64,000 nucleotides of DNA from Pirellulales bacterium (GTDB lineage Bacteria; Planctomycetota; Planctomycetia; Pirellulales; UBA1268), in contig JBIIOK010000003.1 of the NCBI GenBank assembly GCA_044336985.1, positions 1,031-65,030 of the forward strand, read 5' to 3'. Shown here in pieces: positions 1 to 62,925 of this stretch. Position numbers and translations under genes: made by a program. Below the pieces are notes generated by a model that saw nothing but the letters and a program-made list of their open reading frames with translations, was not told the origin of the DNA and searched no databases. How positions within the stretch are numbered: the first letter of the stretch is position 1; each line of letters begins with the position of its first letter.

Positions 1-518
1 GCGCATCCTGGCAGCAATCAGCCCGGATCATCGACGCGCTCGACGAACCCGATCTCTCCACGGCTCTGGCGGCGATCTTCGAGACGGCCGGCGACGAACG
101 GCTCAGGCATGCGGCCCACAGGCTGCGGCTTTCCAATCGCGAGGTGAAACTCGCCTGCTGGCTCGTCGATGCCGTGGCGACGCTCGGCAACGCAACGGCC
201 GACGAACTTGCCACGCGGCCGTGGTCGCAGGTGCAGCCGCTGCTTGCCCACGACGACGCCTTCCTGCTGGCCGATCTGCTGCGGGCGCGGGCCGACTGCG
301 GCCGCGGGAATGCCGGGGCCGCGGCCTGGGTGACCGCGCAGGCCTCGCGACCGAAGGCCGAGCTCGATCCGCCGCCGTTCGTGACGGGGAGCGATCTGAT
401 GGCAGCGGGCATTCCGGAGGGGCGGGCCGTCGGGGCGGCGCTCGCCGCCCTGCGGGCGAAGCAACTCGACGGCGAGATCACGAGCCGCGAGGCGGCGATC
501 GAGTGGGTGAGAAAGTAG
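1..518 (+). CDS. CCA-adding enzyme / poly(A) polymerase family protein, C-terminal part (5' end outside window)
   Basis: Frame 3 is open from the window edge to TAG 516-518. The tail PPFVTGSDLMAAGIPEGRAVGAALAALRAKQLDGEITSREAAIEWV resembles the C-terminal helical domain of bacterial tRNA nucleotidyltransferases. Assignment is by motif recall only. Confidence 0.55.
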   Translation, partial: ASWQQSARIIDALDEPDLSTALAAIFETAGDERLRHAAHRLRLSNREVKLACWLVDAVATLGNATADELATRPWSQVQPLLAHDDAFLLADLLRARADCGRGNAGAAAWVTAQASRPKAELDPPPFVTGSDLMAAGIPEGRAVGAALAALRAKQLDGEITSREAAIEWVRK

Positions 519-536
519 GACAGGCTTCAGCCTGTC
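515..536 (+). repeat. REP-D hairpin repeat (GTAGGACAGGCTTCAGCCTGTC)
   Basis: GTAG head plus a 7-bp stem GACAGGC/GCCTGTC with loop TTCA. Head TAG 516-518 is the stop of the upstream CDS. Confidence 0.85.
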
Positions 537-542
537 GAAAGC

Positions 543-630
543 CACGGAAGCCCGAAGCGCGAGCGAGGAGAGTCGGGGTTTTGCGGAGTAGCGGCGCGGA
601 TCGACCTTGCTTGCGCGGCGGGCTTCCGTG
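543..630 (+). mobile_element. B-family inverted-repeat element, copy B1 (MITE-like, putative)
   Basis: 88 bp with 12-bp termini CACGGAAGCCCG/CGGGCTTCCGTG and an inner imperfect inverted repeat. One of five copies in the window. Confidence 0.75.
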
Positions 631-636
631 CGGGGA

Positions 637-59856: not shown

Positions 59857-60113
59857 GTCTGGCCTTTCAAGGGATGCGACGGTGTGCGAGAAGGCTGTGG
59901 GCCGCGGACCAAATGGGCGGGGATCCTAGATAACCCCTCCTTGCCGTGCCAGATCGCTTGCCGCCGGGAAAATAGCAGCGTTGCTGGCGCACCGGGGCCT
60001 CGGCGTGGGTCGTTCCGGAATCCCGCATCGCCTCGGGAGGGGGGCGGGCGTATATTCTGTGGCTGTTCAGAAACGGTCCCGAAGGAGCGCGGAATTCGGG
60101 AGGAGGAATCAAG

Positions 60114-61397
60114 ATGCGTTCACGCGACGTGGACCAGGCGCGCATGCGGGATGTGGTGGCGGTGGTATTGGCAGGCGGCAAGGGCGCCAGGCTCGAGCCG
60201 CTCACCCGCGACCGCGCGAAGCCGGCCGTGCCATTCGGCGGTAGCTACCGGATCGTCGACTTCGCGCTGTCCAACTGCCTCAACAGCGGTCTGCGACAGG
60301 TGCTGCTGCTCACGCAGTACAAGGCGAGCAGCCTCGACCGCCACCTGAATCTTGGCTGGCACCGGTTCTTCTGCCGCGACCTCGGCGAACGCCTCGACGT
60401 GCTGCCGCCGCAGCAGCGCGTGGACGAAAACTGGTACCTCGGCACGGCCGACGCGGTGTATCAAAACATCTACTCGCTCGAGATGGCGGCACCGCGGCTC
60501 GTCCTCGTGCTGGCCGGCGACCACATCTACAAGATGAACTACCAGAAGCTCATCGACGCGCATGAGGAGAATGGCGCCGACGTGACGGTCGGCGCGCTTC
60601 CCGTGCCGCGGGCGGCGGCCCTGGAATTCGGAACGATGCAGGTCGACGCATCAGGCCGCGTTCGCAGCTTCCGCGAGAAGGTGGCCGATCCGCCGACGAT
60701 TCCCGGCGACCCGGAGATGTGCCTGGCGTCGATGGGCATCTACTGCTTTTCCTGGCCGTTTTTGCTCGAGCAGTTGAAGCTCGACGCGGGCGAGCCGCAA
60801 AGCCGCCACGACTTCGGCCATGACCTGCTGCCATCGGTCATCGACACCCATGGCGTCTACGCCTTCCCGTTTCGAGACGAGAACCGCAAGCGCGATGCCT
60901 ACTGGCGCGACGTCGGCACGGTCGACGCCTACTTCGCCGCCAATATGGATCTGGTGGGGGTCGATCCCGAGCTCAACATGTATGACGAGCACTGGCCGAT
61001 CCGCACCCACCATCCGGCCTATCCGCCGCCGAAGTTCGTCTTCGCCGGCGAGGGGTACGACGCCCGCCGCGGCGAGGCGACCGACAGTCTCGTCTGCCCC
61101 GGCGCCATTCTCTCCGGCGGCCGCGCGACGCGGTCGATCATCGGGCCGGGCGTCCGGGTCAACAGCTTCGCGCGGATCGAGGAAAGCATTCTCTTCGAGG
61201 GCGTCGACATCGGCCGCCATGCGCAGGTTCGCCGGGCGATCATCGACAAGGGGGTGCGCGTGCCCCCCGGGATGACGATCGGCTTCGATCCCGAGCAGGA
61301 TCTGGCTCGGGGGTTGACGGTTTCGCCACAGGGCGTGACCGTGGTGCCCAAGGGGCATCAGTTCGAGGATGCCCCGGTTCCCGCCTTCAGCCGCTAG
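60114..61397 (+). CDS. glgC: Glucose-1-phosphate adenylyltransferase
   Basis: VVLAGGKGARLEPLTRDRAKPAVPFGGSYRIVDFALSNCLNSG, WYLGTADAV and the left-handed beta-helix C-terminus. Confidence 0.95.
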   Translation: MRSRDVDQARMRDVVAVVLAGGKGARLEPLTRDRAKPAVPFGGSYRIVDFALSNCLNSGLRQVLLLTQYKASSLDRHLNLGWHRFFCRDLGERLDVLPPQQRVDENWYLGTADAVYQNIYSLEMAAPRLVLVLAGDHIYKMNYQKLIDAHEENGADVTVGALPVPRAAALEFGTMQVDASGRVRSFREKVADPPTIPGDPEMCLASMGIYCFSWPFLLEQLKLDAGEPQSRHDFGHDLLPSVIDTHGVYAFPFRDENRKRDAYWRDVGTVDAYFAANMDLVGVDPELNMYDEHWPIRTHHPAYPPPKFVFAGEGYDARRGEATDSLVCPGAILSGGRATRSIIGPGVRVNSFARIEESILFEGVDIGRHAQVRRAIIDKGVRVPPGMTIGFDPEQDLARGLTVSPQGVTVVPKGHQFEDAPVPAFSR

Positions 61398-61418
61398 CCA
61401 CACGCGGCCCACCCATCC

Positions 61419-62711
61419 ATGCCGAAGCGCAACCTGCTGCTTGTGTTCCTGACCACGGTCGTCTGCATCCTCGCCTGGATGGCCCGCGACCGTGGCCTGC
61501 ACGGCCGTCAGTTCGGCGAGGTGATGGCGGCCATCGAGCGGCGGCATCTGGAGCCCGTGAATCCGGATTTGCTCTTCGGGGCCGCGATGGAGGGGGTGTT
61601 TTCAAAGCTCGACGAGCACTCGGCCTTCATTGTCGACGAAGAACGCGAGGCCCTCGACGCGGCGCTCGACCAGGAATTCGGCGGCGTGGGGCTCGAACTG
61701 GCCATCGACGACCGCGACGGCTCGGTCCTCGTCGAGAGCCCGATCCTCCATTCGCCGGCCTGGCGGGCCGGCATCGCGGCCGGCGAGCGGATCCTGGCGA
61801 TCGACGGTATCTCCACCCGCGGCATGAAGCTCAAGGAGGCGGTGGCCGCGCTCCGCGGCCCCCCAGGCGCAGCGGTTTCGATCACCGTGGGCGATCAAGC
61901 TCGCGTGATTCCTCTCGAACGTGAGATCGTGAGGACGGAGAGCGTGCTCGGTGACCATCGCCGCCCCGATGGATCATGGGAATGGTTCGTCGAGGGCGAG
62001 CCCGGCATCGTTCACCTGCGGATCACGGCGTTCGGCGAGCACACGCTCGAGGATCTGGACCGGGCGATCGCCGCGATCGGCGCGGCACACGATCCGCGCG
62101 GCGTGATCCTCGACCTGCGCGGCAATCCGGGTGGCCTGCTCGCCGTGGCGGTCGAGGTGAGCGACCGTTTTCTCGACGAGGGGGTGATCGTGTCGACCCG
62201 CGGTCGCGAAGCCTCCTCGGGCGACCGCACGGCAGCCCTCGACGTCCGACGGGCGAAGGGGGGCAGTGTCTTCGCCGGAGTGCCGATGGCGGTGCTCGTG
62301 GACGGACTCACCGCGAGCGCCGGGGAGATCGTGGCCGCGGCGCTGCAGGACAACGGCCGCGCCACTGTCGTGGGGAGCCGTTCATTCGGCAAGGGCACGG
62401 TGCAGTCGATCGTGCCGCTCGCGGATGGCCGGAGCCTGCTCAAACTCACCACGAGCGAGTATCTGCGGCCGAGTCAGGCCAACATTCATCGCCGCGATGG
62501 GGACGCCGAGTGGGGCGTGTCGCCCGAGCCGCGGAACGAGATCAACCCGCCGGCGCAGACCCTCGAAACCGTGAAGGCATGGCGTGCGGCCCGCGACGTC
62601 GTGCCGTCGCCCAATGCCCCGGCCGCCGCGGAAGCAGCGGTCGAATCGGCCGCGGTGCTTCCCCGCCACGTCGATCCCGTCATTGCCCGCGCACTCGACG
62701 TGTTGAAGTAG
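61419..62711 (+). CDS. S41 carboxy-terminal processing peptidase with PDZ domain
   Basis: PDZ (GVGLELAIDD..SPAWRAGIAAGERILAIDG) and the S41 catalytic region (VLVDGLTASAGEIVAAALQD, GSRSFGKGTVQS). Confidence 0.9.
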   Translation: MPKRNLLLVFLTTVVCILAWMARDRGLHGRQFGEVMAAIERRHLEPVNPDLLFGAAMEGVFSKLDEHSAFIVDEEREALDAALDQEFGGVGLELAIDDRDGSVLVESPILHSPAWRAGIAAGERILAIDGISTRGMKLKEAVAALRGPPGAAVSITVGDQARVIPLEREIVRTESVLGDHRRPDGSWEWFVEGEPGIVHLRITAFGEHTLEDLDRAIAAIGAAHDPRGVILDLRGNPGGLLAVAVEVSDRFLDEGVIVSTRGREASSGDRTAALDVRRAKGGSVFAGVPMAVLVDGLTASAGEIVAAALQDNGRATVVGSRSFGKGTVQSIVPLADGRSLLKLTTSEYLRPSQANIHRRDGDAEWGVSPEPRNEINPPAQTLETVKAWRAARDVVPSPNAPAAAEAAVESAAVLPRHVDPVIARALDVLK

Positions 62712-62925
62712 ACCGCTTCGTCCCGAAGCGGATCTCCCTGCTATCCGCCATCAACTCGCCCAATCCGGCTTCGGGCGACCCGTACCCCGTCGCCGGACGT
62801 TCGCTACGGACATCCTTGTCCTTCGCTCACTCGTATGCTGACAAGCTTCGCCATCCTGGCTGCGCTTGTCAGCATACGCCGGCTCCCGGGGTACGGGTCG
62901 CCCGAAGCCGGCCCTGGCTGTCTAC
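62708..62925. mobile_element. A-family element, copy A4 (short form)
   Basis: The left end is a REP-C hairpin (62708-62734). It has a perfect 24-bp outer stem (62765-62788 / 62888-62911) and a perfect 14-bp inner stem (62833-62846 / 62864-62877). The right end reads GTAGAC on the minus strand (62920-62925). Confidence 0.8.

Follow-up and report, generated by a model that had tools for sequence, protein, structure and literature searches.

Why do so many genes in one stretch of planctomycete DNA stop exactly on the first bases of a short repeat? The stretch analysed here, called the window, comprises 64,000 nucleotides of a Pirellulales bacterium (assembly GCA_044336985.1, contig JBIIOK010000003.1, positions 1,031 to 65,030) and harbors two families of repetitive extragenic palindromic (REP) elements, REP-D and REP-C. 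In both, an unpaired tetranucleotide of sequence GTAG, the head, precedes a perfect stem of 7–8 bp. About one third of the genes in this high-GC genome end on the TAG of a REP head, and the arrangement is non-random. As an explanation we propose that the element brings the TAG and takes over as the stop codon, that the native stop decays, and that selection then locks the head in place; we regard this proposal as standing about evenly between acceptance and rejection.

The GC content is 67–70% along the whole window (68% overall), and a plain listing yields 229 open reading frames (ORFs) of at least 100 amino acids in the 64 kb, many of them spurious at this composition. Gene calling by third-position GC gave about 45 genes, so the total of 49 used in an initial annotation of the window was slightly high, with no bearing on the result. 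Both GT[AG]G-headed hairpin families proposed in that annotation were found where it had placed them, by a pattern search with a shuffled control. REP-D is GTAGGACAGGCTTCAGCCTGTC, with the variant GTAGGGTAGGCTTCAGCCTGCC (the GTAGGGTAGG...GCC form), and occurs in 15 copies with at most three mismatches, against none in shuffled sequence. REP-C is GTAGACCGCTTCGTCCCGAAGCGGATC, with seven exact copies against none after shuffling, and a loop variant, REP-C' (GTAGACCGCTTGCTCCGCAAGCGG), raises the total to 27 full copies. RNA folding gave −12.5 kcal/mol for REP-D and −14.4 kcal/mol for REP-C (stems −12.5 to −14.5), none of 200 shuffled sequences was as stable, and the GTAG head stays unpaired in the folded repeat. 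In loci that were not chosen by repeat, GTAG heads 25 of 27 REP-D hairpins and GTGG the other two. The window repeats thus have the short palindrome of 20–40 nt, the high copy number and the conserved unpaired 5' GT[AG]G by which GTAG-headed REPs are recognized.

Fifteen stop codons had been listed as supplied by repeat heads. TAG is indeed present at all 15 positions, but only 13 are canonical head TAGs in register with the upstream gene (offset 0), namely those starting at 516, 1453, 2448, 3680, 13150, 13242, 23806, 35054, 36523, 41396, 41888, 58477 and 62709. The stop at 5505 is the second TAG of a GTAGGGTAGG head, the first TAG of which is out of frame, and that at 62922 belongs to a hairpin-less head remnant, GTAGAC, with which a longer repeat ends. 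Three stops described as near misses are also as stated, with TGA-A-GTAG at 8404, TAG-TAGACC at 23881 and TAA-GTAG at 49620. Four of the 13 canonical stops lie in composite elements that are described further below; the repeats at the other gene ends, together with their neighboring units, are the following.

515–536, plus strand: REP-D; head TAG 516–518 is the stop of a CCA-adding/poly(A) polymerase-like gene.
1435–1456, minus strand: REP-D; head TAG 1453–1455 is the stop of a xylose-isomerase-like TIM barrel gene.
1410–1431, minus strand: REP-D with a GTGG head; second unit of a tandem pair with 1435–1456, not a stop.
2430–2451, minus strand: REP-D; head TAG 2448–2450 is the stop of an N6/N4 DNA methylase.
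3657–3683, minus strand: REP-C; head TAG 3680–3682 is the stop of an M20 peptidase.
3404–3430, plus strand: REP-C; inverted partner of 3657–3683 with the heads outward and about 226 nt of degenerate repeats between them.
5492–5513, minus strand: REP-D variant GTAGGGTAGG...; second TAG 5505–5507 is the stop of methionyl-tRNA formyltransferase (Fmt).
13149–13170, plus strand: REP-D; head TAG 13150–13152 is the stop of GlnE.
13224–13245, minus strand: REP-D variant; head TAG 13242–13244 is the stop of a VTT-domain gene.
23805–23828, plus strand: REP-C' (loop CTCC); head TAG 23806–23808 is the stop of the NAD-dependent DNA ligase (LigA).
23842–23883, minus strand: REP-C' 23842–23865 plus the half head TAGACCGCTTCG; the glycosyltransferase-9 gene ends TAG-TAG, with 23881–23883 as its stop.
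35036–35057, minus strand: REP-D with one mismatch; head TAG 35054–35056 is the stop of a DUF1501 gene.
36505–36526, minus strand: REP-D; head TAG 36523–36525 is the stop of UvrC; a half REP-C and REP-C' 36458–36481 follow.

In the window, a REP is the first downstream element of 18 gene ends; 13 of them are at offset 0, which corresponds to p = 8e-14 if 20 open positions are considered and to p = 8.5e-4 under a null of one third that takes only the frame into account. Random insertion into 3' spacers, which the initial annotation had rejected, cannot yield such a pattern, and the comparison of head and stop coincidence with chance that it had called for upheld the excess both in the window and in other loci. 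It had also asked whether the true coding ends might lie upstream of the heads. The REP-terminated ORFs are coding, with a third-position GC of 0.82–0.94 over their last 100 codons; their Pfam domains reach within a few residues of the C-terminus, and orthologues end at the same or neighboring codons. The genes concerned are ordinary conserved ones, encoding Fmt, GlnE, LigA, UvrC, the M20 peptidase, phosphoglucomutase, an S41 peptidase, the methylase, a sigma factor and the DUF1501 protein.

The same register was found beyond the window. A scan with the REP-D 22-mer, restricted to one genome per species, returned at least 114 stretches (L006–L119; related loci are designated by L numbers throughout). 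In 58 high-GC loci, offset 0 applied to 51 of 88 REP-D heads with a coding stop nearby. Counted from the gene side, 1136 coding 3' ends included 79 in which the first REP-D is head-first and 15 in which it is tail-first, and 57 of the 79 head-first copies were at offset 0, with 2 more supplying the stop via the second TAG. A coding ORF was present in the TAG frame for 63 copies and in the other two frames for 6, so that copies that are read through are rare (6/69). For the Acidobacteriota, where open-frame length instead of third-position GC was used, a long TAG frame was seen in 19 copies (a second frame was also long in 3 of these), and the other frames alone were long in 2 and 2. The copies are extragenic and lie between convergent genes in 55 cases, between tandem genes in 25 (23 sense, 2 antisense) and between divergent genes in 2, the preference for convergent and unidirectional over divergent positions that is typical of GTAG-headed REPs.

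Comparison with relatives indicates what the heads replaced. L002 (91% identity in Fmt) and L005 (92%) served as syntenic comparators, and a metagenome scan added 80 loci at 36–82% identity. In REP-less relatives the usual stop is TGA, located at the same codon or 1–3 codons downstream. The M20 gene of the window ends in ..CTGGCCACG-TAG-ACC(REP-C), and that of L002 and the outgroups in ..CTGGCCACG-GCC-TGA-GACGG, which places the ancestral stop one codon later; beyond the REP cluster of about 290 nt, the old GCC-TGA-GACGG survives in the window as GGTTCAGACGG, with the stop mutated from TGA to TCA. Relative to L002 and L005 the methylase is shortened by 17 codons, and their TAG corresponds to a TTG downstream in the window. 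Here, alignment of the whole tail past the REP was insignificant (z about 1.2), and only the distal part with the old stop is recognizable. Replacement of native stops, one of the possibilities considered in the initial annotation, fits these comparisons, with M20 and the methylase as examples of native stops that were displaced and then decayed.

Other genes show smaller shifts. REP-less orthologues of LigA, GlnE, VTT and S41 have TGA or TAA at the same codon or at most three codons later, apart from GlnE of L002, where the stop is 11 codons later. In Fmt, almost all outgroups end in TGA four codons earlier, and three close relatives carry REP heads at slightly differing offsets. With the REP, the final codon of the APendo gene went from CGG to AAG. 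In REP-less relatives the convergent pairs GlnE/VTT and LigA/glycosyltransferase are separated by 12–21 nt from native stop to native stop; the window has, in each case, a head-outward REP pair instead of this spacer and the two stops, with no leftover. Over the usable comparisons, the head TAG coincides with the ancestral stop codon in 5–6 of 12 window genes and lies within one codon of it in 9 of 12. Empty sites in 13 comparisons carried G-TAG at the same codon in 2, G-TAA or G-TGA in 3 and stops at other positions in 7–8, and the M20 empty site has no GTAG. An A-rich leader precedes the stop as AAG-TAG in 15 of 64 stop copies; it moves along with the element and overwrites the last codon. 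Directly after the hairpin, no consistent TGA, TAA or TAG that could be the remnant of a displaced stop was found in the 64 stop copies.

Stop usage differs accordingly between genomes: TAG terminates 24 of 45 genes in the window versus 107 of 399 in relatives that were not chosen by repeat (p = 4.5e-4). The base before the stop (window and loci) is G in 62–86% of cases before TAA or TAG, and before TGA it is C in 33–48% and G in 25–34%. This G-TA context probably reflects avoidance of CTA(G/A), and it is the baseline for any argument based on GTAG. Two such arguments were discarded. The excess of G before TAG stops without a hairpin (62–86%, versus 25–34% before TGA) could have marked relic heads, but it is also present before TAA (62–80%) and hence is no evidence of decayed REPs. 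A G at position −1 in five of five REP-less orthologues with the stop at the same codon is not significant given the same baseline.

A sister species in the UvrC comparison (L219–L221, 90% identity) is nearly free of REPs; TGA accounts for 14 of its 16 stops, and its convergent genes are 15 nt apart.

Heads remain fixed while the sequences behind them change. Most of 120 close homologues of UvrC share one end position, and the G-TAG of the gene occupies that position in five lineages, three of which have hairpins of differing families, one no adjacent hairpin and one no REP. The gene ends gag-ggg-TAG followed by REP-D in the window, gac-gag-TAG followed by GACGGGCGTCCCTGCCTGTC in L201 and gat-cag-TAG followed by ACCAGGCATTCCTGCCTGG in L204; L206 has gac-gag-TAG without an adjacent hairpin, and L219 gag-gag-TAG without any REP. 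Among ten strains that are 98.7–99.7% identical, only one large difference was seen, a 222-nt element carried by L206 and L208 but not by L207 and L213. Its site is a double-headed REP (GTAG-CACAGGTTGGCAACCTGTG-CTAC), within which it lies between 19-nt direct copies of the hairpin. The strains that differ in this indel are 99.1–99.6% identical; both heads around it are intact, and a gene of 294 amino acids has its stop in one of them. No fresh capture of a stop was seen between strains: L001–L004 (99.8% identical) differ by no REP indel, and L206–L215 show only the 222-nt indel. L219–L221 differ by one indel of about 230 nt, which lies in a divergent promoter region and is neither REP-D nor REP-C.

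The following course of events would connect these observations. REP units would insert at the 3' ends of genes in sense orientation, no further than about one codon from the existing stop. If a unit lands in register, the TAG of its 5' tetranucleotide would end the frame at once, altering the protein by zero to a few residues, and the displaced native stop, usually TGA, would become free to decay. The head would be locked because this decay leaves no other stop: with the head TAG as the sole stop, purifying selection would retain it. Parts distal to the head could continue to turn over, through exchange of the hairpin family, addition of units and insertion of miniature inverted-repeat transposable elements (MITEs). 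Unlocked copies would vanish, the census would come to be dominated by copies whose TAG is a stop, and stop usage would move from TGA to TAG. Lock-in would then be the cause of the excess at offset 0, with an intrinsic preference of the element for the neighborhood of stops and for sense orientation, and mobilization presumably of the type performed by REP-associated tyrosine transposases (RAYTs).

Several observations weigh against this course of events, or at least require additions to it. Antisense REP-D copies that are locked via the TGA of their loop number 3–4 versus 59 head TAGs (p = 1e-13), about 15 times fewer; lock-in alone predicts equal numbers, so a preference for orientation must be added. 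Copies 1–10 nt past an intact stop should be neutral but are rare (8 versus 59), which requires either fast loss of unlocked copies or real targeting. Heads of the GTAGGGTAGG type use their first TAG ten times and the second twice (9:2 if two orthologous copies are merged), although both TAGs are equally harmless, which hints that the register is set by the insertion itself. The replacement of the whole spacer and both stops by a REP pair, at two convergent pairs, exceeds simple insertion. Moreover, the share of stop-supplying copies depends on the family, with 6/7 and 9/17 for the stem GACAGGC, 1/11 for CACAGGT and 3/10 for REP-C.

Nor was a transposase found in the window and 214 loci (2.0 Mb). 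A phmmer search of all ORFs of at least 70 amino acids in this DNA with E. coli RayT (NC_000913) gave a best E value of 0.55, by which a distant RAYT could be missed, and the ORFs between inverted REP-D copies are not transposase-like. RAYT mobilization, on which the initial annotation relied, stays an assumption. We tried and rejected a rule by which insertion targets A|G of the sense strand (C|T of the complement), so that codon bias would bring TAG into frame: only 41% of the last codons are NAG, the AAG of APendo arrived with the element, and the known enzyme cuts the GTAG-bearing strand (PMC3479197). We also considered capture of stop codons by integration in register with the stop, either through a target rule of the enzyme or with G-T-R-R stops serving as pseudo-heads, combined with an addiction-like persistence of REPs and REPINs. 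This idea is tentative, and we lean against it.

The alternative that survives best takes a native G-TAG stop, or the head of a resident REP, as the integration target of an IS200/IS605-like system, so that the TAG predates the REP and C-termini are unchanged. In one step it accounts for offset 0, the head-first orientation, the invariant G at −1, tandem arrays and the turnover of families in place, and it agrees with the predominance of GTAG as head in unselected loci (25/27) and with the bias of GTAGGGTAGG heads for the first TAG (10 to 2). UvrC has G-TAG at the same codon without a REP in the REP-poor species L219, REP-less orthologues with G-TAG at the same codon exist for APendo (L133) and LysM (L201), and the position of the polymorphic 222-nt insert can be read as the precise junction of a GTAG head with its hairpin. 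Stops at conserved positions flip among TGA, TAA and TAG, which makes a TGA in a relative compatible with an earlier TAG. However, the M20 and methylase insertions occurred in coding sequence without a prior GTAG and pushed the native stop downstream, and the REP-less relative stops at another codon in 7 of 13 close comparisons. The A-rich leader (AAG-TAG, 15/64) comes with the element and overwrites the last codon, and plenty of native G-TAG stops in the window have no REP. The E. coli RAYT, furthermore, binds GTAG in a guide-like manner and cuts C|T at a variable distance, not beside GTAG (PMC3479197). On this evidence a G-TAG target is doubtful, although it retains some plausibility.

Selection might instead favor a stable hairpin at the point of ribosome release, for 3'-end protection, termination or translational down-tuning, as the initial annotation had suggested. 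The folds of −12.5 and −14.4 kcal/mol (0/200 shuffles equal) and the almost exclusive location of REPs downstream of genes agree with such a function; SMAG repeats are known to change how stable upstream transcripts are (PMC3184786), and in E. coli, REPs no more than 15 nt from a stop cause ribosomes to stall and reduce translation, at least in the form in which this work is cited in PMC12306157 (Liang, Rudd and Deutscher 2015). Yet a palindromic stem forms the same RNA hairpin both ways, and stop-supplying copies are nevertheless head-first 59 to 4; spacings of 1–10 nt, which are equivalent for the ribosome, are rare. In positions 1–20000 of the window no stop-supplying REP was called as an intrinsic terminator in the sense direction, and two REPs were called in the antisense direction only (hairpin-CTAC-TTT). 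The sense-side flanks (GAAAG, AAAG, GCTCC, ATTC, TCTC) contain no T-run, leaving only the antisense side terminator-like. Heads also remain stops without a neighboring hairpin (UvrC of L206; 62922 in the window), hairpin families are interchangeable, and the sister species does without them (L219, 14/16 stops TGA). It is implausible that a third of the genes, fmt, ligA, uvrC and glnE among them, would be down-tuned. The suggestion fits the orientation bias, the missing sense T-run and the heads that outlast their hairpins poorly, and is unlikely to be the explanation.

Still less probable is compaction, in which REPs land anywhere in 3' spacers and a strong deletion bias, acting in a streamlined genome, then removes spacer so that gene end and REP come to have one stop in common. 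REP-less spacers are short (12–21 nt between convergent and 44–67 nt between tandem genes, with some overlaps), and sharing of a repeat by genes reaches extremes such as the double-headed copy at L002 15522–15547 and the head TAG plus loop TGA in L030. But the intermediate arrangement of a stop followed by GTAG does not pile up (0 of the 79 first head-first REP-D copies, with few at 1–10 nt), every fusion requires an exact in-frame deletion, and the M20 and methylase sites are insertions, not deletions. Finally, chance or an artefact of gene calling, by which open frames in high-GC DNA, with its many spurious ORFs (229 of at least 100 amino acids in 64 kb), would simply run on until they meet an AT-rich REP head, is refuted by the coding third-position GC (0.82–0.94), the full-length Pfam matches, orthologues that end at the same or neighboring codons, and binomial tests (p 1e-13 to 1e-91).

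The repeats resemble elements described before. Di Nocera, De Gregorio and Rocco (2013, BMC Genomics 14:522, PMC3733652) sorted REPs into GTAG- and CGTC-tagged super-families, the former of which includes SMAG, and reported such REPs in Planctomycetes and in the verrucomicrobium Opitutus terrae (GTAG-17 to -20). They state in one sentence that the TAG of the head can act as stop, with no counts, orthologue comparison or mechanism. The register, presented as unusual in the initial annotation, is thus real and non-random but was already on record. Like the members of the GTAG super-family, the present repeats are hairpins of 20–30 nt with an unpaired 5' GTAG, in high copy number and in several families per genome, and they occur singly, in tandem groups and as head-to-head or tail-to-tail dimers between convergent and unidirectional genes. 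The REP-D and REP-C consensus sequences are not in the supplementary tables of that survey. Unlike in the survey, about one third of the genes are affected here, and the REP-D 22-mer is common to the Acidobacteriota as well. New here are the quantification, the orthologue comparison, the persistence model and the REP families; the register itself is known in kind.

The REPIN-RAYT systems (Nunvar 2010; Bertels and Rainey 2011; Bertels et al.) are similar in their GT[AG]G heads, in the inverted doublets with long hairpins that some of the present units form, and in long vertical persistence at fixed sites. They differ in that neither the window nor the 2.0 Mb of related DNA showed a RAYT gene, and that many units are single or in same-orientation arrays. 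Bertels et al. (bioRxiv 10.1101/2021.07.10.451892) mention stop codons for frameshifted RAYT genes only, not for REPs, and a review covering SMAG repeats (PMC3184786) does not mention stop codons. In E. coli a large share of REPs adjoins stops, according to what PMC12306157 conveys of them, and a ribosome that terminates at a stop with a REP no more than 15 nt away cannot avoid the hairpin, as here (Liang, Rudd and Deutscher 2015, Mol Cell 58:431). Those repeats, as far as these accounts describe them, lie downstream of the gene's own stop and regulate particular genes, whereas here the stop is part of the repeat and the orientation is fixed. Small palindromes that are tolerated in reading frames and alter protein ends are also known as Rickettsia RPEs and as intragenic REPs of O. 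terrae; these are read through and add residues, whereas the present repeat ends the protein.

Insertion of IS200/IS605 elements is strand- and sequence-specific, and IS608 inserts 3' of TTAC, outside the element. What the IS200/IS605 elements (IS608, ISDra2) and E. coli TnpA-REP share with the present repeats is a hairpin with a tetranucleotide at its 5' foot that plays a central part in recognition and cleavage. TnpA-REP cuts C|T at a variable distance (Messing et al. 2012, PMC3479197). Neither the IS608 nor the TnpA-REP rule alone predicts in-frame placement on stops, and no such enzyme is seen here.

The distribution of REP-D is wide. Among 80 listed matches with titles, most are from Planctomycetota and Acidobacteriota, with one from Verrucomicrobiia and a few from odd metagenome-assembled genomes; those attributed to Saccharimonadales, Kapaibacterium, Kuenenia and Heliomicrobium may be binning contamination. 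The exact 22-mer GTAGGRYAGGCTTCAGCCTGYC is present, among the matches listed, in Pirellulales, Planctomycetia, Isosphaeraceae and Planctomicrobium, and on the acidobacterial side in Terriglobia, Acidiferrales, Thermoanaerobaculia and Bryobacteraceae. Acidobacterial copies have additional conserved flanks, ..GGTTTAA before and TGGTTTTGATTT after the repeat. The occurrence in two phyla suggests horizontal spread of the REP system or strong convergence.

REPs are found singly, in tandem arrays, in head-outward inverted pairs and at the borders of MITE-like composites. Head-outward pairs are found at 13149/13245, 3404/3683 and 23805/23865 in the window and at 3366–3418 in L005, the last of which folds into a long hairpin of −45 kcal/mol; most stop-supplying copies are singles or belong to same-orientation arrays. 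A single REP can serve two convergent genes. At L002 15522–15547 a double-headed GTAG-hairpin-CTAC unit gives both stops in an intergenic region of 20 nt, and double-headed copies occur likewise in L124, L033 and L090 (positions not located). At about 2828–2856 of L030 the head TAG stops one gene and the TGA in the loop of the same hairpin stops the opposing gene. 'Half REP-C' units, which consist of the head and 5' arm only (GTAGACCGCTTS) followed by 2–8 nt, often AAA, and a complete REP-C, recur at 8408–8421, 8478–8494, 23866–23880, 36482–36500 and 50093–50112. They look like a systematic by-product of unit addition, for example by insertion at the head or slippage at the hairpin.

The composite element is non-coding, about 360–450 nt long and present in four copies in the window, always between convergent genes and bounded by outward-facing REP heads. 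Its terminal inverted repeats (TIRs) of about 65–75 nt read CAACGCGCCCAAYCCGGC..GTACCC..GGACGTTCGCTACGG and the complement. The window copies have no codon periodicity and no Rfam match; at the gathering score, the sole match of Rfam 15 in the window is one tRNA (17788–17860, minus strand), with none for the REPs. The strain-polymorphic 222-nt element of L206 is a related TIR element. A further palindromic family of about 90–130 nt (ACGGAAGCCCGCAGCGCAAGCAAGG ... CTCGCTCGCGCGTCGGGCTTCCGT) is intergenic and often lies beside REPs. The composite copies and the remaining repeats of the window are listed below.

41395–41891, unstranded: composite copy; REP-D 41395–41416 (plus strand) gives the phosphoglucomutase stop 41396–41398; the interior of about 360 nt has long TIRs, with REP-C 41787–41813 (minus strand) and three tandem REP-D variants 41818–41891 (minus strand), the outermost of which gives the stop 41888–41890 of a sigma-70 family gene.
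49623–50092, unstranded: second composite copy; bounded by REP-C 49623–49649 (plus strand) and 50066–50092 (minus strand); PheT retains TAA 49620–49622 abutting the head, and a DUF11 gene retains TAA 30 nt from the head.
58139–58480, unstranded: third composite copy, left-truncated; REP-D variant 58459–58480 (minus strand) gives the stop 58477–58479 of a LysM gene.
62708–62932, unstranded: fourth composite copy, internally deleted; REP-C 62708–62734 (plus strand) gives the S41 peptidase stop 62709–62711, and the GTAGAC remnant without a hairpin gives the stop 62922–62924 of a Mur-ligase-like gene.
8408–8519, unstranded: REP cluster after hyp216, which retains its native TGA 8404–8406; composed of a half REP-C head, REP-C' 8422–8445 (plus strand), REP-C 8451–8477 (minus strand), a half REP-C and REP-D 8498–8519 (minus strand).
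26029–26052, minus strand: REP-C' with the degenerate head GAAG, not at a stop.
544–634, 5374–5464, 15619–15711, 37922–38041 and 58276–58396: palindromic family of about 90–130 nt.

The closest protein relatives of the window are lake metagenome-assembled genomes named "Planctomycetia bacterium" or "Pirellulales bacterium", with identities up to 92–95%, and the host is an uncultured freshwater Planctomycetia lineage. At high identity, no GTDB locus in the comparison overlapped the window. A bacteriorhodopsin-family gene (PF01036) adjoins a carotenoid oxygenase gene (PF15461, BCD) at 14506–16620 (minus strand) in the window and at 685–2615 in L001. Going by these domain assignments, the two would form a retinal-making pair, which implies putative light-driven ion pumping in this planktonic planctomycete. 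VTT-domain genes are present as two tandem copies in L005 and as one in L002 (window 13191–14680 versus L002 2717–3367), and across 13191–14680 the window exceeds L002 in length by about 600 nt. This stretch probably represents a local gene duplication or loss beside the REP-filled GlnE/VTT junction.

For genome annotation, these results mean that in REP-rich high-GC genomes a mobile repeat may define one third of the C-termini and stop codons, and that gene callers and orthologue alignments should expect end differences between close relatives that are caused by REPs. For REP biology, the one-line remark of 2013 gains numbers, and the persistence idea is that a head which is the sole stop of a gene cannot be lost. 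The bias in orientation and register goes beyond what selection on the protein accounts for and points to a targeting property of the mobilizing enzyme. The sister species L219–L221 provides a natural REP-less comparator. The process also offers a route by which stop usage may shift from TGA to TAG without a change in release factors. If stop-codon capture is true, it would explain the long vertical inheritance of REPs, and it could rewrite the stop usage of a genome, here from about 27% to 53% TAG.

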